Under the pieces are notes generated by a model, which saw only the letters and a program-made list of their open reading frames with translations, ran no database searches and was not told the origin of the DNA. From Escherichia coli (GTDB lineage Bacteria; Pseudomonadota; Gammaproteobacteria; Enterobacterales; Enterobacteriaceae), in assembly GCF_003334315.1 (NCBI RefSeq), contig NZ_QOWR01000065.1: a stretch of DNA of 24,206 bases, one strand, 5' to 3'. Both the position numbers and the translations under genes were made by a program. Positions 4,316 to 22,496 of the stretch are shown here, piece by piece (position 1 is the first letter of the stretch; the number at the start of each line of letters is the position of its first letter).

Positions 4316-6649
4316 TTGGCCAACTCATCCTCACGATATTCCGTTCTGACTGCCGCCCATTGGGGGCCCATGCTGGTTGAAACCGACGGCGAAACCGTGT
4401 TTAGCTCGCGTGGCGCGTTAGCCACAGGAATGGAAAACTCCTTGCAGAGCGCGGTTCGCGACCAGGTTCACAGCAATACGCGGGTACGATTTCCAATGGT
4501 GCGAAAAGGCTTTCTTGCGTCACCGGAAAACCCGCAAGGCATTCGTGGGCAGGATGAATTTGTTCGCGTGAGTTGGGATGAGGCGCTGGATCTTATTCAC
4601 CAACAACATAAACGCATTCGTGAGGCTTATGGTCCGGCATCGATTTTTGCTGGTTCCTACGGCTGGCGTTCAAACGGCGTGCTGCATAAGGCCTCGACAT
4701 TATTACAACGCTATATGGCGCTGGCAGGCGGTTATACCGGGCATCTGGGGGATTATTCGACCGGCGCGGCACAGGCGATCATGCCGTATGTCGTGGGTGG
4801 TAGTGAAGTTTATCAACAGCAGACCAGTTGGCCGCTGGTGCTGGAACATAGCGATGTCGTGGTGCTGTGGAGTGCTAACCCACTCAATACGCTGAAAATT
4901 GCGTGGAATGCATCCGATGAGCAGGGGCTTTCTTACTTTTCTGCACTGCGTGACAGCGGGAAAAAGCTGATCTGCATTGATCCAATGCGATCGGAAACCG
5001 TCGATTTCTTTGGCGATAAAATGGAGTGGGTGGCACCGCACATGGGCACCGATGTTGCGCTGATGCTGGGGATCGCCCATACGCTGGTGGAAAATGGTTG
5101 GCACGACGAAGCGTTTCTGGCGCGTTGCACCACAGGTTATGCCGTCTTCGCTTCTTATTTGCTGGGCGAGAGTGACGGAATAGCGAAAACCGCCGAATGG
5201 GCAGCAGAGATTTGTGGTGTTGGCGCAGCGAAAATCCGCGAGCTGGCGGCTATTTTCCACCAAAATACCACCATGCTGATGGCAGGCTGGGGAATGCAGC
5301 GCCAACAGTTTGGTGAGCAAAAACACTGGATGATCGTCACGCTGGCAGCAATGTTGGGGCAAATCGGCACACCCGGCGGCGGTTTTGGTCTTTCTTACCA
5401 TTTTGCCAATGGTGGTAACCCCACGCGGCGTTCTGCGGTGCTCTCTTCCATGCAGGGCAGCTTGCCGGGTGGCTGCGATGCGGTGGATAAAATCCCTGTT
5501 GCCCGCATTGTTGAAGCACTGGAAAACCCTGGTGGCGCATATCAACACAACGGTATGAACCGACATTTCCCGGATATTCGTTTTATCTGGTGGGCGGGTG
5601 GTGCCAACTTTACTCATCATCAGGATACCAATCGCCTGATCCGTGCCGGGCAAAAACCGGAGCTGGTGGTGATCTCTGAATGCTTCTGGACGGCGGCGGC
5701 AAAACACGCGGATATCGTTCTGCCTGCGACTACCTCTTTTGAGCGTAATGATCTCACCATGACCGGTGATTACAGTAATCAGCATCTGGTGCCGATGAAG
5801 CAAGTGGTGCCGCCACGCTATGAAGCGCGTAATGATTTTGATGTTTTTGCCGAGTTAAGTGAACGCTGGGAGAAGGGCGGTTATGCACGTTTTACGGAAG
5901 GAAAAAGTGAGCTGCAATGGCTGGAAACGTTTTATAACGTTGCCCGACAGCGCGGGGCAAGCCAGCAGGTTGAATTGCCGCCATTTGCTGAGTTCTGGCA
6001 AGCCAACCAGTTAATTGAGATGCCGGAAAACCCGGACAGCGAGCGGTTTATTCGCTTCGCTGATTTTTGCCGCGATCCGCTGGCGCATCCGTTAAAAACC
6101 GCCAGCGGCAAGATTGAAATCTTCTCACAGCGTATTGCCGATTACGGTTACCCGGATTGCCCTGGGCATCCAATGTGGCTGGAGCCGGACGAATGGCAGG
6201 GCAATGCCGAACCAGAACAGTTGCAGGTACTTTCTGCCCATCCGGCGCACCGCCTGCACAGCCAGCTGAATTACAGTTCTCTGCGCGAATTGTACGCGGT
6301 GGCAAATCGTGAGCCTGTCACCATTCATCCTGACGATGCCCAGGAGCGCGGCATACAAGATGGCGATACTGTTCGGTTGTGGAACGCACGCGGGCAAATT
6401 CTTGCCGGAGCGGTCATTAGCGAGGGAATTAAACCTGGCGTGATTTGCATTCACGAAGGGGCATGGCCGGATCTGGATTTAACCGCTGACGGTATTTGTA
6501 AAAACGGCGCAGTGAACGTGCTGACCAAAGATCTCCCCAGCTCGCGGCTGGGGAATGGCTGTGCGGGTAATACGGCGCTGGCATGGCTGGAAAAATACAA
6601 CGGTCCGGAACTGACACTTACAGCGTTTGAACCACCGGCCAGCTCATAA
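4316..6649 (+). CDS. bisC: Biotin sulfoxide reductase, molybdopterin oxidoreductase of the DMSO reductase family, 777 aa
   Basis: Long ORF with molybdopterin oxidoreductase features. The apparent start is TTG at 4316, with CAGGAG at 4302-4307. Length matches K-12 BisC. Confidence 0.9.
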
Positions 6650-7058
6650 TCCATGTGGGTAGTTGGGTTTCATCCTGCCATGCGCAATCGACAATGTGAA
6701 AACCCTGTGCCTGGTAAAAATTTATCGCCGGTTGATTTTTTTGATAAACCTCCAGCATCAGGTGGGGATGGCGCTGCTGCACATACTGCATCAGCGCCTT
6801 ACCAATACCGCGCCTGACGGCCTTCGGTGCGACAAACATCGCTGCCAGAAATCGGCCTTCCATAATGCTGACAAAACCGAGAAGCTTACCGTCTTCTTCC
6901 CAGACCCAGTTTTGCGCGTTGGCAAGATAGGCATCCCGCACCAGCGGAATGCAGTCACGCCAGTAATTCGCTTTTATAAAGGGATGCCCCCAGGTTGTAC
7001 TTTCCAGCCACAGTTCGAGGATCGCGGGGAGTTCTGAACGTTGCGCTTCCCGAATCAT
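6618..7058 (-). CDS. yiaC: GNAT-family N-acetyltransferase YiaC, 146 aa
   Basis: Full-length 146-aa ORF with an acetyl-CoA-binding motif (RRGIGKALM). Its 3' end overlaps the 3' end of bisC by 32 bp in convergent orientation. Confidence 0.85.
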
Positions 7059-7618
7059 GGTTTATTTCCCGGATAGCAACAGCAGCCAACCACATGATCA
7101 TTCACCAGCCCACATGCCTGCATAAAGGAGTAACAGATTGTGGTGCCGACAAACTTAAAACCACGTTTTTTCAGTGCCTTAGATAGGGCGTCGGAGGCGG
7201 ACGTAGATGTGGGAATTTCGCTCAACGTTGTGGCTTGTGTCACCTGTGGCTGATGATTTACAAACGACCAGACAAAGTCGACAAACGGTTCGCCGTTCTG
7301 TTCCATTTGCAGGTACGCCCGCGCATTACCAATAATTGCCTGAATTTTCCCTCGATGGCGGATAATCCCGGCGTCCTGTACCAGTCTTTCGACATCCTCT
7401 TCCTGCATTGCTGCGACCTTCACCGGATCGAACTGATGAAAGCAGGCGCGATAGTTTTCGCGTTTTTTGAGGACGGTGATCCACGATAATCCAGCCTGCT
7501 GCCCTTCAAGGCAGATCATTTCGAACAGTTTTTTACTGTCAGTTTCAGGCACGCCCCACTCATTATCATGGTAGGCAATATAAAGCGGGTCCTGACTCAC
7601 CCAGCCGCAACGTTCCAT
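7055..7618 (-). CDS. tag: DNA-3-methyladenine glycosylase I, 187 aa
   Basis: Start set at MERCGWVSQDPLYIAYHDNEWG to give the 187-aa product; the ORF-track start at 7855 is an upstream extension. The tag stop overlaps the yiaC start in an ATGA junction (7055-7058), suggesting translational coupling. Confidence 0.9.
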   Translation of the reverse strand: MERCGWVSQDPLYIAYHDNEWGVPETDSKKLFEMICLEGQQAGLSWITVLKKRENYRACFHQFDPVKVAAMQEEDVERLVQDAGIIRHRGKIQAIIGNARAYLQMEQNGEPFVDFVWSFVNHQPQVTQATTLSEIPTSTSASDALSKALKKRGFKFVGTTICYSFMQACGLVNDHVVGCCCYPGNKP

Positions 7619-7775
7619 ACTTTCCCTCGCTATGTACCCGATCGTAAAAATTTCAGCCGCTTTTCTTGACGCATCGGTGAAAAAGTCAATATTTAATACA
7701 GGGCTACTATGCCCGATATCCTTCATACAATGACAATAATATTGCCGAATTCGGCTCTTCCCTGGAGTCGTGTTA

Positions 7776-8474
7776 ATGATCATAAAAAAAAGCGGTGGTC
7801 GCTGGCAGCTAAGCCTGCTGGCGAGCGTGGTAATCAGTGCCTTTTTTCTCAACACAGCTTACGCCTGGCAACAAGAATATATCGTTGATACGCAACCCGG
7901 ACATTCCACAGAGCGTTACACCTGGGATAGTGATCATCAACCTGATTACAACGATATTTTGTCGCAACGTATTCAAAGTAGCCAAAGGGCGCTGGGACTG
8001 GAAGTCAATCTGGCAGAAGAAACCCCTGTGGATGTGACCAGCAGTATGAGTATGGGCTGGAATTTTCCTTTATATGAACAGGTTACAACCGGCCCGGTCG
8101 CGGCATTACATTACGATGGCACAACCACCTCGATGTATAACGAGTTTGGCGACAGTACTACCACGCTGACCGATCCGTTATGGCATGCCAGCGTGAGTAC
8201 CTTAGGCTGGCGTGTTGACTCCCGGCTTGGCGATCTCCGACCCTGGGCGCAAATCAGCTATAACCAGCAATTTGGCGAGAATATCTGGAAGGCGCAATCA
8301 GGCCTGAGCCGGATGACGGCGACAAACCAGAACGGCAACTGGCTGGATGTCACCGTAGGCGCTGATATGTTGCTCAATCAAAATATTGCCGCCTATGCCG
8401 CGCTAACTCAGGCAGAAAATACCACTAATAATAGCGACTATCTGTATACGATGGGGGTTAGCGCCAGATTTTAA
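7776..8474 (+). CDS. yhjY: Conserved outer-membrane beta-barrel (autotransporter-like) protein YhjY, 232 aa
   Basis: GGAG at 7764-7767 precedes the ATG at 7776. N-terminal signal peptide ending AYA and a C-terminal aromatic residue (ARF). Position matches K-12. Confidence 0.8.
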   Translation: MIIKKSGGRWQLSLLASVVISAFFLNTAYAWQQEYIVDTQPGHSTERYTWDSDHQPDYNDILSQRIQSSQRALGLEVNLAEETPVDVTSSMSMGWNFPLYEQVTTGPVAALHYDGTTTSMYNEFGDSTTTLTDPLWHASVSTLGWRVDSRLGDLRPWAQISYNQQFGENIWKAQSGLSRMTATNQNGNWLDVTVGADMLLNQNIAAYAALTQAENTTNNSDYLYTMGVSARF

Positions 8475-8588
8475 CGTAACAGTCACAATTGAAACCATTA
8501 AATAACAATAGTTGTGGCGATAGTGGGTGCTAACTTACCAAATAATAAATTTGGTGAATAATTGTCGCGTCATTCATTCCTGAACTAA

Positions 8589-8619
8589 GGCATTTCATTC
8601 CGTTCTGATGGCATTTCAT
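8589..8619 (+). promoter_or_regulatory. YpdB response-regulator binding site in the yhjX promoter: two direct repeats GGCATTTCAT separated by 11 bp
   Basis: Exact repeats at 8589-8598 and 8610-8619, read directly, 84-114 bp upstream of the yhjX start. This matches my recollection of the published YpdB motif. Confidence 0.65.
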
Positions 8620-8702
8620 GCCGTTTTTCCCCAGGCATAAAGTGCACTTCGTTATGGTTGTCGGCAGAGATTTTTCCTTTTTATTACTGCAGGAATACTG
8701 CC

Positions 8703-9911
8703 ATGACACCTTCAAATTATCAGCGTACCCGCTGGCTGACACTCATCGGTACTATCATTACCCAGTTTGCGCTGGGGTCGGTTTATACCTGGAGCCTGTT
8801 TAATGGCGCGCTTTCCGCCAAGCTGGATGCGCCGGTAAGCCAGGTCGCTTTCTCTTTCGGCTTGTTAAGTCTGGGGCTGGCAATTTCGTCTTCTGTTGCG
8901 GGCAAATTACAGGAACGTTTTGGCGTTAAACGCGTCACCATGGCTTCCGGCATTTTGCTGGGATTAGGCTTCTTCCTGACAGCGCATTCTGACAACCTGA
9001 TGATGCTGTGGTTAAGCGCCGGTGTGCTGGTGGGACTGGCAGATGGCGCGGGTTATCTGCTGACGCTCTCTAACTGTGTGAAGTGGTTCCCGGAGCGTAA
9101 AGGTCTGATCTCCGCGTTCGCTATCGGTTCTTATGGTCTGGGTAGCCTGGGTTTCAAATTTATCGACACGCAGCTGCTGGAAACGGTCGGTCTGGAAAAA
9201 ACCTTTGTGATTTGGGGAGCGATTGCGCTGTTGATGATTGTTTTCGGCGCAACGTTAATGAAAGACGCACCAAAACAGGAAGTGAAAACCAGCAATGGTG
9301 TGGTGGAGAAAGATTACACGCTGGCAGAGTCGATGCGTAAACCGCAGTACTGGATGTTAGCGGTAATGTTCCTGACCGCCTGCATGAGCGGCCTGTACGT
9401 GATTGGGGTAGCGAAAGATATCGCCCAAAGTCTGGCACACCTTGATGTGGTTTCCGCAGCCAATGCAGTCACTGTTATTTCCATCGCCAACCTTTCAGGT
9501 CGTCTGGTGCTGGGTATTCTGTCTGACAAAATCGCCCGTATCCGTGTTATTACCATTGGTCAGGTGATATCGCTGGTGGGTATGGCGGCCCTGCTGTTTG
9601 CACCATTGAATGCAGTGACGTTCTTTGCAGCGATTGCCTGCGTGGCATTTAACTTTGGCGGCACTATTACCGTCTTTCCGTCACTGGTCAGTGAGTTCTT
9701 TGGCCTCAATAACCTGGCGAAAAACTACGGTGTGATTTATCTCGGTTTCGGTATCGGTAGCATTTGTGGTTCGATTATCGCCTCACTGTTTGGCGGCTTC
9801 TATGTGACCTTCTACGTGATTTTCGCCCTGCTGATTCTGTCATTGGCGCTTTCTACGACGATTCGTCAGCCAGAGCAGAAAATGTTGCGTGAGGCGCATG
9901 GCTCCCTTTAA
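8703..9911 (+). CDS. yhjX: Major-facilitator-superfamily transporter YhjX (pyruvate-inducible), 402 aa
   Basis: Twelve hydrophobic segments typical of MFS. Start set at MTPSNYQRTRWLTL (8703); the ORF track begins 15 codons earlier. Confidence 0.88.
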   Translation: MTPSNYQRTRWLTLIGTIITQFALGSVYTWSLFNGALSAKLDAPVSQVAFSFGLLSLGLAISSSVAGKLQERFGVKRVTMASGILLGLGFFLTAHSDNLMMLWLSAGVLVGLADGAGYLLTLSNCVKWFPERKGLISAFAIGSYGLGSLGFKFIDTQLLETVGLEKTFVIWGAIALLMIVFGATLMKDAPKQEVKTSNGVVEKDYTLAESMRKPQYWMLAVMFLTACMSGLYVIGVAKDIAQSLAHLDVVSAANAVTVISIANLSGRLVLGILSDKIARIRVITIGQVISLVGMAALLFAPLNAVTFFAAIACVAFNFGGTITVFPSLVSEFFGLNNLAKNYGVIYLGFGIGSICGSIIASLFGGFYVTFYVIFALLILSLALSTTIRQPEQKMLREAHGSL

Positions 9912-9995
9912 TGCTCAGCCGCGAGCTACTGGGCTTCAGCTTCCGTGTGCATCAAACGCATCAACGAAATGTATAAACAATGACTCGTAAAATTT

Positions 9996-10018
9996 GGGCC
10001 AATTAACTGGCCCTTTTT
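9996..10018 (+). terminator. Rho-independent terminator of yhjX
   Basis: GGGCCA-ATTAAC-TGGCCC is a perfect 6-bp stem followed by TTTTT, about 85 nt after the stop. Confidence 0.65.
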
Positions 10019-10234
10019 ACTGCTTTTTGTAACGCTAAAGTCTCTTTTCAAACTTGCATTTTTGTAAATTTGTGCTTCATGCACACTCTTTCCCCACACT
10101 TTTTCCCTTTGCTGTGGTCTACTTATTCGCGCGTGTAGATTTTACTTATCTGACTACCTCCGCACTTTTTCCCTGCCGGGCCTGAAAAGCCACTAAGCAG
10201 GGTGTTATCACCTGTTTGTCCAGGGTTTGTTTGC

Positions 10235-11926
10235 ATGAGATACATCAAATCGATTACACAGCAGAAGCTGAGCTTTTTGCTTGCAATCTATATTGGCCTT
10301 TTTATGAATGGCGCGGTTTTTTACCGCCGCTTCGGCAGCTATGCGCACGATTTTACCGTCTGGAAAGGCATTTCTGCTGTTGTTGAACTGGCCGCCACCG
10401 TACTGGTGACCTTCTTTTTACTACGTCTTCTTTCGCTGTTTGGCCGCCGCAGCTGGCGTATTCTGGCATCGCTGGTGGTGCTCTTTTCCGCAGGTGCCAG
10501 CTATTACATGACCTTCCTTAATGTGGTCATTGGTTATGGCATCATCGCTTCCGTCATGACCACCGATATCGACCTGTCAAAAGAAGTTGTTGGTCTGAAC
10601 TTTATTCTCTGGTTAATCGCCGTTAGTGCATTGCCTCTTATCCTTATCTGGAATAACCGCTGTCGCTACACCTTGCTCCGACAACTGCGAACCCCAGGGC
10701 AGCGTATTCGCAGCCTGGCGGTCGTCGTACTGGCGGGTATTATGGTTTGGGCACCGATTCGTTTGCTGGATATCCAGCAGAAGAAAGTGGAGAGGGCGAC
10801 CGGCGTTGATTTGCCGAGTTATGGCGGTGTCGTAGCGAACTCTTATCTGCCATCAAACTGGCTTTCTGCGTTGGGGCTGTATGCCTGGGCGCGGGTCGAT
10901 GAATCTTCCGATAATAATTCATTGCTTAATCCGGCGAAGAAATTCACTTATCAGGCACCGCAAAACGTTGATGACACTTATGTCGTGTTTATCATCGGTG
11001 AAACCACGCGTTGGGACCATATGGGTATTTTCGGCTATGAGCGTAATACCACGCCGAAACTGGCCCAGGAGAAAAATCTGGCGGCGTTCCGTGGTTACTC
11101 CTGTGATACCGCAACCAAACTCTCACTGCGTTGCATGTTTGTACGTCAGGGGGGCGCGGAAGATAATCCGCAGCGCACATTAAAAGAACAGAACATTTTC
11201 GCGGTTCTGAAGCAGTTAGGATTCAGTTCTGACCTCTACGCTATGCAGAGCGAAATGTGGTTCTACAGCAACACGATGGCGGACAACATTGCTTATCGTG
11301 AGCAGATTGGTGCGGAGCCACGTAATCGTGGCAAGCCGGTAGATGATATGTTGCTGGTAGACGAAATGCAGCAATCGCTAGGGCGCAACCCGGATGGTAA
11401 GCATCTGATCATTCTGCATACCAAAGGTTCGCATTTTAACTACACCCAGCGTTATCCGCGTAGCTTCGCGCAGTGGAAGCCGGAATGTATTGGTGTTGAT
11501 AGCGGCTGTACCAAAGCGCAGATGATCAACTCCTATGACAACTCGGTGACCTATGTGGATCACTTTATCTCCAGCGTGATTGATCAGGTTCGCGATAAGA
11601 AAGCGATTGTGTTCTACGCAGCTGACCACGGTGAGTCAATTAATGAACGCGAGCACCTGCACGGCACGCCGCGTGAACTGGCACCGCCGGAGCAGTTCCG
11701 CGTACCGATGATGGTCTGGATGTCAGATAAATATCTGGAAAATCCGGCCAATGCGCAGGCGTTTGCGCAGCTGAAAAAAGAAGCCGACATGAAAGTGCCA
11801 CGCCGTCACGTAGAGCTGTACGATACCATCATGGGTTGTCTTGGCTATACTTCACCGGATGGTGGAATTAACGAAAACAACAACTGGTGTCACATCCCGC
11901 AGGCAAAAGAGGCAGCGGCTAACTAA
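10235..11926 (+). CDS. eptB: Kdo2-lipid A phosphoethanolamine transferase (sulfatase/alkaline-phosphatase superfamily), 563 aa
   Basis: N-terminal transmembrane segments followed by a periplasmic sulfatase-like domain. Start set at [10 protein letters not shown] (10235). Confidence 0.9.
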
Positions 11927-11976
11927 GCGGCCTGCTGACTTTCTCGCCGATCAAAAGGCATTTTGCTATTAAGGGA

Positions 11977-12005
11977 TTGACGAGGGCGTATCTGCGCAGT
12001 AAGAT
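11977..12005 (+). promoter_or_regulatory. proK promoter: -35 TTGACG, 17-bp spacer, -10 TAAGAT, GC-rich discriminator
   Basis: TTGACG at 11977-11982 and TAAGAT at 12000-12005, followed by GCGCCCC. A GC-rich discriminator is typical of stringently controlled stable-RNA promoters. The mature tRNA 5' end is 13 nt downstream. Confidence 0.55.
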
Positions 12006-12017
12006 GCGCCCCGCATT

Positions 12018-12351
<334 letters not shown>

Positions 12352-12352
12352 C

Positions 12353-12438
12353 GTAGGCCTGATAAGACGCGTCAGCGTCGCATCAGGCAAATGTGCCGGC
12401 CATTGTCGGATGCGGCGCGACCGCCTTATTCGACCTAC
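12353..12438. repeat. REP elements (BIME-like pair of palindromic units)
   Basis: GTAGGCCTGATAAGACGCGTCAGCGTCGCATCAGGC, followed by a degenerate unit ending GCGGCGCGACCGCCTTATTCGACCTAC. Both resemble E. coli REP palindromes. Confidence 0.6.
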
Positions 12439-12803
12439 ACGACACACATTTCCCTGCCAAATTTGCGCCCCATATCTCACTATCCATTAACGGATTTGTG
12501 ACAGAAACCATTGTCTTTTTTTATATTTGCTTAAATCTTTTTTTGCGTTACTTATGGCTGGCCCTGGCATTTTCCGCTGTGCGTTTTAGCGTTCATGGTA
12601 TTAATCGCTCAGATATCCACCTTTTCCTCAGATTTTTTTCATTAAATGCATAAAACTTAATCACCAAATGTTGCTAAATATTAAGCTGATTGTTCTGGTC
12701 ATGTTGGAGTAGCACAAATTTCTCTGCTGCAAATAGCTGTTTGAAGTTTTTTTAATCTTTGTTTGTGGATTCTCACCGTTGGTGTAAATCCCGGTTGGCT
12801 GTA

Positions 12804-12840
12804 TTGACGTTTTCACATTCTGTTGACAGATTGTAGGTCA
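12804..12840 (+). promoter_or_regulatory. Putative dppA promoter (-35 TTGACG, weak -10), giving a leader of about 165 nt
   Basis: TTGACG at 12804-12809 with a weak -10 (CAGATT) 17 bp downstream. Position matches my recollection of a long dppA leader. Weak sequence evidence only. Confidence 0.3.
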
Positions 12841-12972
12841 CGAGGGGCATTTTATGGAGGATCCGCACTGTTACACTGATGTTAATTAGTACGGCATCCC
12901 CACCTCATAACGTTGACCCGACCGGGCAAAAAACAAAAAAGGTCAGGCAGCGACAACCCACTGCAAAGGGTT

Positions 12973-12997
12973 AAAACAACAAACATCACAATTGGAG
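12973..12997 (+). promoter_or_regulatory. C/A-rich element next to the dppA Shine-Dalgarno; likely GcvB sRNA target site
   Basis: AAAACAACAAACATCACAA (12973-12991) lies immediately upstream of GGAG (12994-12997). GcvB is known to pair with C/A-rich elements in dppA and opp leaders. Confidence 0.5.
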
Positions 12998-13004
12998 CAG
13001 AATA

Positions 13005-14612
13005 ATGCGTATTTCCTTGAAAAAGTCAGGGATGCTGAAGCTTGGTCTCAGCCTGGTGGCTATGACCGTCGCAGCAAGTGTTCAGGCTAAAACTCTGGTT
13101 TATTGCTCAGAAGGATCTCCGGAAGGGTTTAACCCGCAGCTGTTTACCTCCGGCACCACCTATGACGCCTCTTCCGTCCCGCTTTATAACCGTCTGGTTG
13201 AATTTAAAATCGGCACCACCGAAGTGATCCCGGGCCTCGCTGAAAAGTGGGAAGTCAGCGAAGACGGTAAAACCTATACCTTCCATCTGCGTAAAGGTGT
13301 GAAGTGGCACGACAATAAAGAATTCAAACCGACGCGTGAACTGAACGCCGATGATGTGGTGTTCTCGTTCGATCGTCAGAAAAACGCGCAAAACCCGTAC
13401 CATAAAGTTTCTGGCGGCAGCTACGAATACTTCGAAGGCATGGGCTTGCCAGAGCTGATCAGTGAAGTGAAAAAGGTGGACGACAACACCGTTCAGTTTG
13501 TGCTGACTCGCCCGGAAGCGCCGTTCCTCGCTGACCTGGCAATGGACTTCGCCTCTATTCTGTCAAAAGAATATGCTGATGCGATGATGAAAGCCGGTAC
13601 ACCGGAAAAACTGGACCTCAACCCAATCGGAACCGGTCCGTTCCAGTTACAGCAGTATCAAAAAGATTCCCGTATCCGCTACAAAGCGTTTGATGGCTAC
13701 TGGGGCACCAAACCGCAGATCGATACGCTGGTTTTCTCTATTACCCCTGACGCTTCCGTGCGTTACGCGAAATTGCAGAAGAATGAATGCCAGGTGATGC
13801 CGTACCCGAACCCGGCAGATATCGCTCGCATGAAGCAGGATAAATCCATCAATCTGATGGAAATGCCGGGGCTGAACGTCGGTTATCTCTCGTATAACGT
13901 GCAGAAAAAACCACTCGATGACGTGAAAGTTCGCCAGGCTCTGACCTACGCGGTGAACAAAGACGCGATCATCAAAGCGGTTTATCAGGGCGCGGGCGTA
14001 TCAGCGAAAAACCTGATCCCGCCAACCATGTGGGGCTATAACGACGACGTTCAGGACTACACCTACGATCCTGAAAAAGCGAAAGCCTTGCTGAAAGAAG
14101 CGGGTCTGGAAAAAGGTTTCTCCATCGACCTGTGGGCGATGCCGGTACAACGTCCGTATAACCCGAACGCTCGCCGCATGGCGGAGATGATTCAGGCAGA
14201 CTGGGCGAAAGTCGGCGTGCAGGCCAAAATTGTCACCTACGAATGGGGTGAGTACCTCAAGCGTGCGAAAGATGGCGAGCACCAGACGGTAATGATGGGC
14301 TGGACTGGCGATAACGGGGATCCGGATAACTTCTTCGCCACCCTGTTCAGCTGCGCCGCCTCTGAACAAGGCTCCAACTACTCAAAATGGTGCTACAAAC
14401 CGTTTGAAGATCTGATTCAACCGGCGCGTGCTACCGACGACCACAATAAACGCGTTGAACTGTACAAACAAGCGCAGGTGGTGATGCACGATCAGGCTCC
14501 GGCACTGATCATCGCTCACTCCACCGTGTTTGAACCGGTACGTAAAGAAGTTAAAGGCTATGTGGTTGATCCATTAGGCAAACATCACTTCGAAAACGTC
14601 TCTATCGAATAA
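13005..14612 (+). CDS. dppA: Periplasmic dipeptide-binding protein of the dipeptide ABC transporter, 535 aa
   Basis: Full-length ORF with signal peptide (MRISLKKSGMLKLGLSLVAMTVAASVQA) and solute-binding protein family 5 features. First gene of dppABCDF. Confidence 0.97.
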   Translation: MRISLKKSGMLKLGLSLVAMTVAASVQAKTLVYCSEGSPEGFNPQLFTSGTTYDASSVPLYNRLVEFKIGTTEVIPGLAEKWEVSEDGKTYTFHLRKGVKWHDNKEFKPTRELNADDVVFSFDRQKNAQNPYHKVSGGSYEYFEGMGLPELISEVKKVDDNTVQFVLTRPEAPFLADLAMDFASILSKEYADAMMKAGTPEKLDLNPIGTGPFQLQQYQKDSRIRYKAFDGYWGTKPQIDTLVFSITPDASVRYAKLQKNECQVMPYPNPADIARMKQDKSINLMEMPGLNVGYLSYNVQKKPLDDVKVRQALTYAVNKDAIIKAVYQGAGVSAKNLIPPTMWGYNDDVQDYTYDPEKAKALLKEAGLEKGFSIDLWAMPVQRPYNPNARRMAEMIQADWAKVGVQAKIVTYEWGEYLKRAKDGEHQTVMMGWTGDNGDPDNFFATLFSCAASEQGSNYSKWCYKPFEDLIQPARATDDHNKRVELYKQAQVVMHDQAPALIIAHSTVFEPVRKEVKGYVVDPLGKHHFENVSIE

Positions 14613-14648
14613 TTAAAAGCCATACAAGACTGATGGCAAAGGCAAAAA

Positions 14649-14820
14649 TGCCTGATGCGCTCCGCTTATCAGGCCTACGAAAATTCTGCAATGTATTGAA
14701 TTTGCACGATTTTGTAGGCCGGATAAGGCGTTAACGCCGCATCCGGCATAAACAAAGCGCACTTTGTCAACAATCTGTATACCCGGTGGCGCTGTGCCTC
14801 TGCGTGCAGCGCCATCCGGC
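14649..14820. repeat. BIME: cluster of about three REP palindromic units between dppA and dppB
   Basis: TGCCTGATGCGCTCCGCTTATCAGGCCTAC (about 14649-14687), GTAGGCCGGATAAGGCGTTAACGCCGCATCCGGCA (14714-14748), and CCGGTGGCGCTGTGCCTCTGCGTGCAGCGCCATCCGGC (14782-14820). Confidence 0.75.
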
Positions 14821-15948: not shown

Positions 15949-16851
15949 ATGTCACAGGTTACTGAAAATAAAGTGATTAGCGCACCGGTGCCGATGACCC
16001 CGTTACAGGAGTTCTGGCACTATTTTAAACGCAACAAAGGCGCGGTCGTCGGGCTGGTTTACGTCGTCATCGTGCTGTTCATCGCGATCTTTGCCAACTG
16101 GATTGCACCCTATAACCCGGCGGAACAGTTCCGCGATGCACTGCTCGCCCCGCCAGCCTGGCAGGAAGGCGGCAGCATGGCGCACTTGCTGGGCACCGAT
16201 GACGTAGGCCGTGATGTGCTGTCGCGCCTGATGTACGGTGCGCGCCTGTCGCTGCTGGTTGGCTGTCTGGTAGTTGTGTTATCGCTGATTATGGGCGTTA
16301 TTCTCGGCCTGATCGCCGGTTACTTTGGCGGCCTGGTCGATAACATCATTATGCGCGTGGTCGATATCATGCTGGCGCTGCCAAGTCTGCTGCTGGCGCT
16401 GGTGCTGGTGGCAATTTTCGGCCCGTCGATTGGTAACGCCGCGCTGGCACTGACCTTCGTTGCCTTGCCGCACTATGTGCGCTTAACCCGCGCCGCCGTG
16501 CTGGTGGAAGTTAACCGCGATTACGTCACCGCGTCTCGCGTGGCGGGTGCCGGGGCGATGCGTCAGATGTTTATTAACATCTTCCCGAACTGCCTTGCGC
16601 CGCTGATTGTTCAGGCGTCGCTCGGTTTCTCTAACGCCATTCTCGATATGGCTGCTCTTGGTTTCCTCGGCATGGGGGCACAGCCGCCAACGCCTGAGTG
16701 GGGCACCATGCTCTCCGACGTGTTGCAGTTCGCGCAAAGCGCCTGGTGGGTCGTGACCTTCCCGGGTCTGGCGATCCTGCTGACGGTGCTGGCATTTAAC
16801 CTGATGGGTGACGGTCTGCGTGACGCGCTCGATCCCAAACTGAAGCAGTAA
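15949..16851 (+). CDS. dppC: Dipeptide ABC transporter permease, 300 aa
   Basis: ABC permease with membrane-spanning segments, starting 10 bp after the dppB stop. Confidence 0.95.
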
Positions 16852-16861
16852 GAGGTTCGAG

Positions 16862-17845
16862 ATGGCGTTATTAAATGTAGATAAATTATCGGTGCATTTC
16901 GGCGACGAAAGCGCGCCGTTCCGCGCCGTAGACCGCATCAGCTACAGCGTAAAACAGGGCGAAGTGGTCGGGATTGTGGGTGAGTCCGGCTCCGGTAAGT
17001 CGGTCAGTTCACTGGCGATTATGGGGCTGATTGATTATCCGGGCCGCGTAATGGCAGAAAAACTGGAGTTTAACGGCCAGGATTTGCAGCGTATCTCAGA
17101 AAAAGAGCGCCGCAACCTGGTGGGTGCCGAAGTGGCGATGATCTTCCAGGACCCGATGACCAGCCTTAACCCGTGCTACACCGTGGGTTTCCAGATTATG
17201 GAAGCGATTAAGGTGCATCAGGGCGGCAACAAAAGTACCCGCCGTCAGCGAGCGATTGACCTGCTGAATCAGGTCGGTATTCCCGATCCGGCATCGCGTC
17301 TGGATGTTTACCCGCATCAGCTTTCCGGCGGCATGAGCCAGCGCGTGATGATCGCCATGGCGATTGCCTGTCGGCCAAAACTGCTGATTGCCGATGAACC
17401 GACCACCGCGCTGGACGTGACCATTCAGGCGCAAATCATCGAACTACTGCTGGAGCTACAGCAGAAAGAGAACATGGCGCTGGTGTTAATTACCCATGAC
17501 CTGGCGCTGGTGGCGGAAGCGGCACATAAAATCATCGTGATGTATGCAGGCCAGGTGGTGGAAACCGGTGATGCGCACGCCATCTTCCATGCGCCGCGTC
17601 ACCCGTATACTCAGGCATTGCTGCGTGCGCTGCCAGAATTTGCTCAGGACAAAGAACGTCTGGCGTCGTTGCCAGGTGTCGTTCCCGGCAAGTACGACCG
17701 CCCGAACGGCTGCCTGCTTAACCCGCGCTGCCCCTATGCCACTGACAGATGTCGCGCTGAAGAACCGGCGCTGAATATGCTCGCTGACGGGCGTCAGTCC
17801 AAATGCCATTACCCACTTGATGATGCCGGGAGGCCGACACTATGA
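16862..17845 (+). CDS. dppD: Dipeptide ABC transporter ATP-binding protein, 327 aa
   Basis: Walker [12 protein letters not shown] signature LSGGMSQR, Walker [13 protein letters not shown], and a C-terminal oligopeptide-transporter ATPase extension. Confidence 0.95.
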
Positions 17846-20816: not shown

Positions 20817-22496
20817 TTACTGCGGGTAAGGCACCCAGTCGCCGCCGTTCAGGCGAACGTACGGTTTATCCTGGTATTGAATAACTACTGCATTTGAGTT
20901 CTCGGAGACCGGTGCTGTTTGTGGCAACCCACTGGTGAGTTTTTTCCAGTCAACATTGTCTTCGGTGAAAATCTTGCCATCAAGAACGCGAACCACCAGA
21001 TCGGAGATAGCCAGGAAGCTGCTCGGTTGGTCGATGACAATCGGTGCCCCCTGATGTGGTGCCTTCATGCCGAAGAATTTCACCCCAACGGGGACGTCTG
21101 TGATAGACGGGCTAGGGATATCACGTAGGCCAGATACCTGCATTCTGTCGCCCTTCAGCGCGCCGCCGTGTTCCGGCACCACGACCACCATCACTTTACG
21201 ACCCGATTTCTCCAGTTCAGTAAAGAAGGCGTCCAGTTCATCAAAGAATTTCTGCGCCCGCGCTTTGTAATCCGCTGTTTTGCTGACCCCCGGATAATGG
21301 TTGCCGTCATGCAGTGGAAGCGTGTTGTAGAACGTGGCACTACGGCTGTTTTTATCTTTTTCGGTAACGTCCAGCCAGCGGTTAAGCACGGCGGTATCGT
21401 CATAAACCGGCGAACCATCAAAGCCCAGCAAAATAACCGGCAGATTTGTTTGATCCATCAATTCAGTCTGCATGCCGCCATTTTCGCGAACTTCTTTCAA
21501 AAAACCGCCGAACTGGCCGTTATGTCCCATCATCAGGTGCTGGGTAAAGCCCAGTTTCGAAAGGTTATCAAACAGATAGCAGTCGTTATTTGCCGGTTGA
21601 TACAGATTAGTGTGCGAAGTCTGCCCGCAGCTGGCGCGCAGTAAACGGATCGCCGCCGGGCCACTGTAGGAGGTGGCGGAGTTAAAGTTCTTGAACTCAA
21701 TATCGAAATGCGACCACAGTGGATGCGACATCAACCCGGCGGCTTCTATATCCGACCAGGAAAGCGAACAGATGTTAATCACCAGTAGTTCAAATGGCTG
21801 AGCATCAGCGGGCAGCGAAGACGGGAAGGTCGATTTACGTTTCGCCTCCGCGTTATAGAAATTATTCAGCCAGGCGTTAAGGTTCGCCGTTGTTGGCGGT
21901 GCAGTTTGTGCGGGCATATCACCCACTACCGGTGCGCCACCCGTCGCCGCAACGGTTGCCGCTGCGTTACCACCCGTCGTTGTTACAGTGGTCGTCGGTT
22001 GTCCGGCTGGCCACAAGGAGAAACTTGGTCCCGCCAGGGTAAGTACGTTCAGCCATAGCAGTATGGCAACCACAAAAACAGTAATGCGAATCCATTGTGA
22101 CAGGAATAACCAGGCCACTAATAAAACAAAAATGGCCCCAATCATCTGCCAGTTAATAAAGCGTGTGACAAGGTCGATTAAATAATCGGTACTGAACCCC
22201 GCCACCTGCGAACCCTGGCTCATTATGCTTTCCGGGCCAGGCAACCAGGTGTCATGCCAGAACAAAGCAAAGCCGATCGGCAGGGCAATCCAGTGGCGCA
22301 AGCGATGCAGGCTGTAGCGCGGAATGGGCATCAGCAGAAACGCGGCAAACACCAAATTGAGGAGCGGATGGAAGTTAAGATATCCCGCCCACAACAGGCC
22401 GAACTTAACCAGAAAATAGAAGTTCCAGCCGGAAAGGCCGCGCCAGTATTGCCAGAGGGAAGAAGGCATGGCGGTATTTTGCGTAAATTGAGTCAT
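20817..22496 (-). CDS. bcsG: Cellulose phosphoethanolamine transferase BcsG, 559 aa
   Basis: N-terminal transmembrane region and a C-terminal alkaline-phosphatase-like domain. ATGA overlap with the bcsF stop. Confidence 0.9.

Follow-up and report, generated by a model that had tools for sequence, protein, structure and literature searches.

Operators recognized by LytTR response regulators have been described in several bacteria. Those of AgrA from Staphylococcus aureus (P2 and P3), ComE, PlnC and VirR share an architecture of two repeats of 9-11 nt, placed 11-13 nt apart and located 5' of the -35 element (PMC4847170), but they display no common consensus sequence and are associated with quorum-sensing peptides as inputs, rather than with pyruvate. 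A pyruvate-responsive LytS/LytTR system has likewise been characterized in Bacillus subtilis, where the LytT boxes of the pftAB (ysbAB) promoter are involved in the induction of a single pyruvate-transporter operon (PMC5626966). The LytT site consists of two 13-nt boxes lying 8 nt apart, that is, with the same 21-bp period as the operator studied here, a likeness that we take from the published description (PMC5626966), and its authors pointed out the similarity between the YpdB site and that of LytT (Charbonnier et al., 2017; PMC5626966). In Escherichia coli, the paralogous LytTR regulator BtsR (YehT) also belongs to the pyruvate-sensing network and its operator, in the btsT (yjiY) promoter, is likewise made of direct repeats located 5' of a transporter gene; nevertheless, its boxes are of the ACCGCTTA type and are not bound by YpdB, for which they served as a no-binding control (PMC4847170).

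The closest described system is the YpdB site in the yhjX promoter (PyhjX) of E. coli K-12. The inducer of the YpdA/YpdB pair, currently annotated as PyrS/PyrR, is extracellular pyruvate, with a threshold of ~600 µM, and yhjX, reported as the sole direct target of YpdB (PMC4847170), is upregulated 678-fold by 3 mM pyruvate (PMC7660256). The published YpdB motif is a direct repeat of GGCATTTCAT (PMC4847170), with site A corresponding to the upstream repeat and site B to the downstream one, as defined by mutated oligonucleotides (Table 1, PMC4847170). In SPR experiments, the phospho-mimetic variant YpdB-D53E bound to PyhjX with two kinetic components, displaying KD values of 1.2 nM and 21 nM, and only two binding events were resolved in the interaction maps; inactivation of site A led to the loss of all YpdB-D53E binding, and a single binding event remained upon inactivation of site B (PMC4847170). 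A sequential 'AB-BA' model was derived from the binding kinetics of the site mutants, according to which site A is the high-affinity, nucleating site, and site B, with lower affinity and fast on/off rates, is filled cooperatively after A; furthermore, the nucleotides flanking the repeats affect expression in vivo (PMC4847170).

In this study, we analyzed a stretch of 24,206 nt from E. coli (contig NZ_QOWR01000065.1), hereafter the window, in which a sequence-only reading had pointed out a pair of direct repeats upstream of yhjX and had interpreted them as the pyruvate-responsive operator of YpdB. The reading was right in what it observed and in how it interpreted it, although this operator was already known in detail; its recovery constitutes evidence that real operators are recognizable from raw sequence, and adds no new biology. 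Taken together, our results indicate that these repeats are almost certainly the YpdB (PyrR) operator that activates yhjX upon pyruvate. What is added to the published K-12 site is descriptive only, namely a 13-nt conserved unit, a third in-register unit and a set of natural variants.

Identity of the repeat pair with the published YpdB operator

The two copies of GGCATTTCAT are located on the + strand, at positions 8589-8598 and 8610-8619, as determined by direct reading and by exact-pattern searches, and the local order (5' to 3') is CTGAACTAA GGCATTTCAT TCCGTTCTGAT GGCATTTCAT GCCGTTTTT. The spacer between them is 11 nt and the start-to-start distance is 21 nt; because the ATG of yhjX is at 8703, the pair spans -114 to -84 relative to the start codon. 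The sequence-only reading had described two exact 10-bp repeats, 21 bp apart, lying 84-114 bp 5' of yhjX, and these values hold exactly. Repeats of 10 nt with an 11-nt spacer also agree with the definition of a LytTR operator. The likeness between the two units extends beyond the decamer, with 15 of 16 positions conserved when they are written as GGCATTTCAT[T/G]CCGTT, and 16 of 21 across the full unit. The pair was listed neither by Tandem Repeats Finder nor by a general repeat search run with three settings, misses that we discount as an effect of filtering because the exact copies are plainly present in the sequence.

Positions 8566-8623 (+ strand) match base for base, over 58 of 58 nt, the yhjX promoter oligonucleotide used for YpdB binding once its G/C clamps are removed (Table 1, PMC4847170), an oligonucleotide that includes every base protected from DNase I (Behr, Heermann and Jung, 2016; PMC4847170, Table 1). 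The promoter-distal repeat of the window (8589-8598, + strand) corresponds to the published site A and the promoter-proximal repeat (8610-8619, + strand) to site B. The comparison with the published footprint that the sequence-only reading had proposed thus resulted in a complete match, and its proposal of a YpdB operator agrees with the literature in motif and spacing. With respect to the K-12 site, locus, sequence, motif, spacing and target gene are the same, and no difference was found. When overlaid on the window, the protected region continues for 23 nt beyond site A on the upstream side, but for only 4 nt beyond site B on the downstream side. The primary DNase I footprint of YpdB at the yhjX promoter is reportedly that obtained by Fried, Behr and Jung in 2013.

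Locus, target gene and regulator genes

The genes of the window are arranged in the order hokA-cspA region-yiaG-yiaF-ghrB-yiaD-bisC-yiaC-tag-yhjY-yhjX-eptB-proK-dppABCDF-yhjV-ldrD-bcsGFE. Over the 10 kb compared (4710-14710), the window displays 99.94% identity to E. coli K-12 MG1655. The two sequences do not differ within the 245 nt surrounding the repeats (~120 nt to either side), and in MG1655 the repeats are found at 3,712,091-3,712,121 on the complementary strand. The region was identified between yhjY and yhjX in 5,423 of 5,426 complete E. coli genomes. The regulated target, yhjX (8703-9911, + strand), encodes a protein of 402 aa, which both annotation and profile matches (TIGR00890, 478.5 bits; NF049980, 342 bits) support; by the former profile, YhjX belongs to the oxalate/formate antiporter family of MFS transporters.

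The genes of the kinase and of the regulator had been stated to be absent from the window and, in agreement with this, tblastn searches with the YpdA and YpdB proteins of MG1655 gave nothing below E = 1. In MG1655, pyrS/pyrR (ypdA/ypdB) are located at 2.4987-2.5011 Mb and yhjX at 3.71 Mb; reading across from this strain, the genome of the window is expected to encode the cognate LytS/LytTR pair.

Organization of the yhjX promoter

An alignment of 20 enterobacterial yhjX promoters was used to delimit conserved elements. These promoters were chosen by exact match to both 10-mers, and therefore only the remaining columns and the position of the repeats constitute independent evidence. The 3' flanks of the repeats are invariant in 20 of 20 promoters, TCC following site A and GCC following site B; as judged from these columns, the conserved unit is 13 nt long, GGCATTTCAT[T/G]CC, and corresponds in the window to 8589-8601 and 8610-8622. 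Further downstream, a conserved block of the form CTTCG-n-TAT-n-GT contains the -10-like hexamer TATGGT, in which T1, A2, T3 and T6 do not vary between genera. On the basis of this alignment, the predicted -10 hexamer would lie at 8653-8658 (+ strand), with transcription probably starting near 8664-8666. No good -35 was found for this promoter, as expected for an activator-dependent one, and a simple consensus promoter scanner did not call a yhjX promoter at the predicted -10. Were transcription to start near 8665, site B would span about -55 to -46 and site A would be found at about -76 to -67, which would be a typical placement for LytTR regulators. The Shine-Dalgarno region CAGGAA (8690-8695, + strand) is 8 nt 5' of the ATG, and its AGGA is invariant in the alignment.

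Other candidate elements in the region were discarded. A sigma-70-like site called by the scanner, TTACCA-16-AATAAT (8535-8562), was rejected as the yhjX promoter because the operator lies downstream of it and because it is not conserved in Citrobacter. The GGCAT at 8634-8638, considered as a fourth half-site, lies 24 nt from site B, which does not fit the register, and is unconserved, and an inverted repeat with arms at 8576-8588 and 8684-8696 was treated as coincidental, since one arm lies 5' of the inferred transcription start. An Rfam scan of positions 8350-8800 for known RNAs gave only two sub-threshold chance matches (E = 0.7).

Separately, a block located ~55 nt 5' of site A, GATAGTGGGTGCTAAC (8519-8534), is shared by Escherichia, Citrobacter and Raoultella, and not by Intestinirhabdus; neither a known site, nor a promoter call, nor an Rfam match was found that would explain it. 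In Escherichia and Citrobacter the 5' neighbor is yhjY, and in Raoultella this place is taken by a more distant homologue (44% identity); therefore this block could belong to either gene.

A third unit in register with sites A and B

The sequence CGTCATTCATTCC (8568-8580, + strand) begins exactly 21 nt 5' of site A and lies within the published DNase I-protected region. It is identical to site A at 8 of 13 positions, with TTCATTCC common to both, and its first five positions depart from the consensus. This led us to consider the operator as an array of three units with a 21-bp period (starting at 8568, 8589 and 8610), the third and degenerate one being contacted by YpdB or by the alpha subunit of RNA polymerase, an arrangement that we regard as rather doubtful, albeit worth stating. 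It is favored by the columns of the alignment that were free of selection, as CATTCATTCC (8571-8580) shows no variation among the 20 promoters despite lying outside the search pattern, and by the combination of exact register and shared core with site A. The asymmetry of the protected region, with 23 nt on the 5' side of site A versus 4 nt on the 3' side of site B, points in the same direction, as does the influence of flanking nucleotides on in vivo expression (PMC4847170). Conversely, two binding events only are seen in the SPR interaction maps (PMC4847170), and the first half of the putative unit is unlike the consensus. Moreover, since inactivation of site A abolishes all binding, the third unit would be unable to bind alone. 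In any case, a three-unit array extends the published two-site model and does not replace it.

Natural variants of the operator in E. coli

The version of the footprint found in the window is present in 3,600 of the 5,426 complete E. coli genomes. A second version, carried by 1,627 of them (~30%), combines a C-to-A change at 8568 with the replacement of G by T at 8589, where site A begins, so that this site reads TGCATTTCAT. The uropathogenic strain UTI89 harbors TGCATTTCAT at site A, yet induction of the native yhjX transcript persists in this strain and depends on btsS and ypdB (PMC9765748). The persistence of YpdB-dependent induction with this variant leads to two considerations: the first G of site A seems to be dispensable in vivo, and only some lineages carry the exact 10-bp repeat. 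A joint reading, in which CGTCATTCATTCC would be a functional contact for YpdB or RNA polymerase and site A could do without its first G, is offered tentatively, as we find it improbable as a whole; if true, it would represent a modest revision of the two-site 'AB-BA' model.

A more drastic variant was found in E. coli DX6 (NZ_CP126345.1), in which an IS1 element is inserted within site B (window-equivalent positions 8609-8617) and is accompanied by a 9-bp target duplication, TGGCATTTC. As a result, site A is parted from an intact site B and from the promoter by about 0.78 kb. This insertion constitutes a natural disruption of the operator, which is predicted to abolish YpdB-dependent induction. 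For the LytTR field, the site A variant and the operator split by IS1 represent ready-made tests of the published binding model. IS1 was also observed in the 3' end of yhjY in several strains, including E. coli CP131_Sichuan (428-1251 of its locus), with the downstream yhjX operator intact.

Proposed activation of yhjX and identity of the binding regulator

The first steps of the mechanism that we propose are established by published work: extracellular pyruvate stimulates the LytS-type kinase YpdA (PyrS), leading to the activation of YpdB, and a first activated monomer binds to site A (8589-8598) with high affinity, followed by a second one that binds to site B (8610-8619) in a cooperative and transient manner. 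The next steps are our proposal. Because the repeat starts are 21 bp apart, both monomers would share one face of the helix, immediately 5' of the promoter with its weak -35, from where the proximal YpdB may recruit RNA polymerase to the -10 at about 8653-8658. Fast release from site B would then give rise to a pulse of yhjX transcription, with site B being cleared first and site A afterward, in keeping with the 'AB-BA' sequence.

The main binder could in principle be another regulator, such as the paralogous LytTR regulator BtsR (YehT), an alternative motivated by strain UTI89, where induction of yhjX depends on the non-cognate pair BtsS-YpdB (PMC9765748). However, the DNA-binding partner in that strain is still YpdB (PMC9765748); the BtsR operator in PyjiY is different, with ACCGCTTA and ACCACTCA as repeats, and YpdB-D53E did not bind to the PyjiY fragment employed as control DNA (PMC4847170). 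We therefore consider a regulator other than YpdB to be very improbable at this operator.

Statistical weight and conservation of the repeat pair

In dinucleotide shuffles of the window, exact 10-mer pairs are expected 0.95 times per window at spacings of 10-40 nt, and 0.03 times at a spacing of 21. The pair of GGCATTTCAT with N11 spacing is unique in the window even when up to 3 mismatches are allowed, and was obtained in none of 100 shuffles. On the other hand, the window contains 3 further exact 10-mer pairs, all of them within coding DNA. An exact 10-mer pair is statistically unremarkable by itself and hence weak evidence, and therefore the case rests on promoter context, conservation and literature: what makes this pair real is that it lies in the promoter region, that it is kept exactly from genus to genus amid diverging flanks, and that it is identical to the published site. 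That the pair might be a functionless chance duplicate in AT-rich intergenic DNA deserves practically no credence, for even if such 10-mer pairs arise about once per shuffled window and three others occur in coding DNA, this one is kept exactly and at the same position 5' of yhjX orthologues in four genera whose adjoining columns vary, it is identical to a biochemically defined site, and the published binding and mutational data in effect refute the idea.

The search for the N11-spaced repeat in other genomes, also proposed by the sequence-only reading, was carried out as an exact-pattern scan of GGCATTTCAT-N11-GGCATTTCAT on one genome per species, covering ~100,000 species. It yielded 30 matches, distributed as 19 enterobacterial, 4 from Limosilactobacillus and 7 unrelated. 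The enterobacterial matches correspond to E. coli, E. albertii, E. whittamii, two Escherichia sp., twelve Citrobacter, Intestinirhabdus alba and a Raoultella sp.; each of these genomes has a single match, which faces and lies directly 5' of a gene whose product is 88-99% identical to YhjX. The seven unrelated matches were set aside as tandem repeats on the basis of their flanks, in which the motif recurs in tandem, in GC-rich or AT-rich runs; they come from unrelated phyla. Within E. coli, the 60-nt footprint was found at a minimum of 95% identity in 5,396 of the 5,426 complete genomes, in a median of one place and never on plasmids. A comparison of more distant YhjX promoters has already been published (PMC5552118).

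Occurrence of the same boxes at Limosilactobacillus lrgAB loci

In four Limosilactobacillus species, among them Limosilactobacillus vaginalis (4427-4457 of its locus), the exact GGCATTTCAT-N11-GGCATTTCAT is located between genes encoding a LytS-like kinase and a LytR-like regulator, and lrgA-lrgB-ldh. Compared along its entire length, the LytR-like regulator shares 36% identity with YpdB. These boxes fit the published likeness between the YpdB and LytT sites and hence represent a further example of it, with no new principle; for the LytTR field, the exact reuse of the boxes at Limosilactobacillus lytSR-lrgAB loci is a by-product of this analysis. The targets in B. subtilis and Limosilactobacillus are of the LrgA/LrgB type (PftAB) and the regulator genes adjoin them, whereas in E. 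coli the target is the MFS protein YhjX and the regulator genes are 1.2 Mb away.

Other repeats in the window

The remaining exact direct repeats form three pairs of 10-11 nt, located at 16370-16401, 17475-17512 and 21937-21979, with spacings of 21, 27 and 33 nt. The first lies in dppC, the second in dppD and the third in bcsG or bcsF, gene coordinates being approximate beyond 12183. As their number about equals the yield of the shuffles, they are probably chance or codon-level repeats.

A longer repeat was observed downstream of tRNA-Pro (proK), where a stretch of 108 nt is exactly duplicated in direct orientation (12076-12183 and 12244-12351), the copies being 168 nt apart. At the start of each copy is the tRNA 3' end (AATCCTCTATCACCGACCA), after which comes a hairpin resembling a terminator. 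The duplication is also found in K-12, and strain 720632 carries a single copy.
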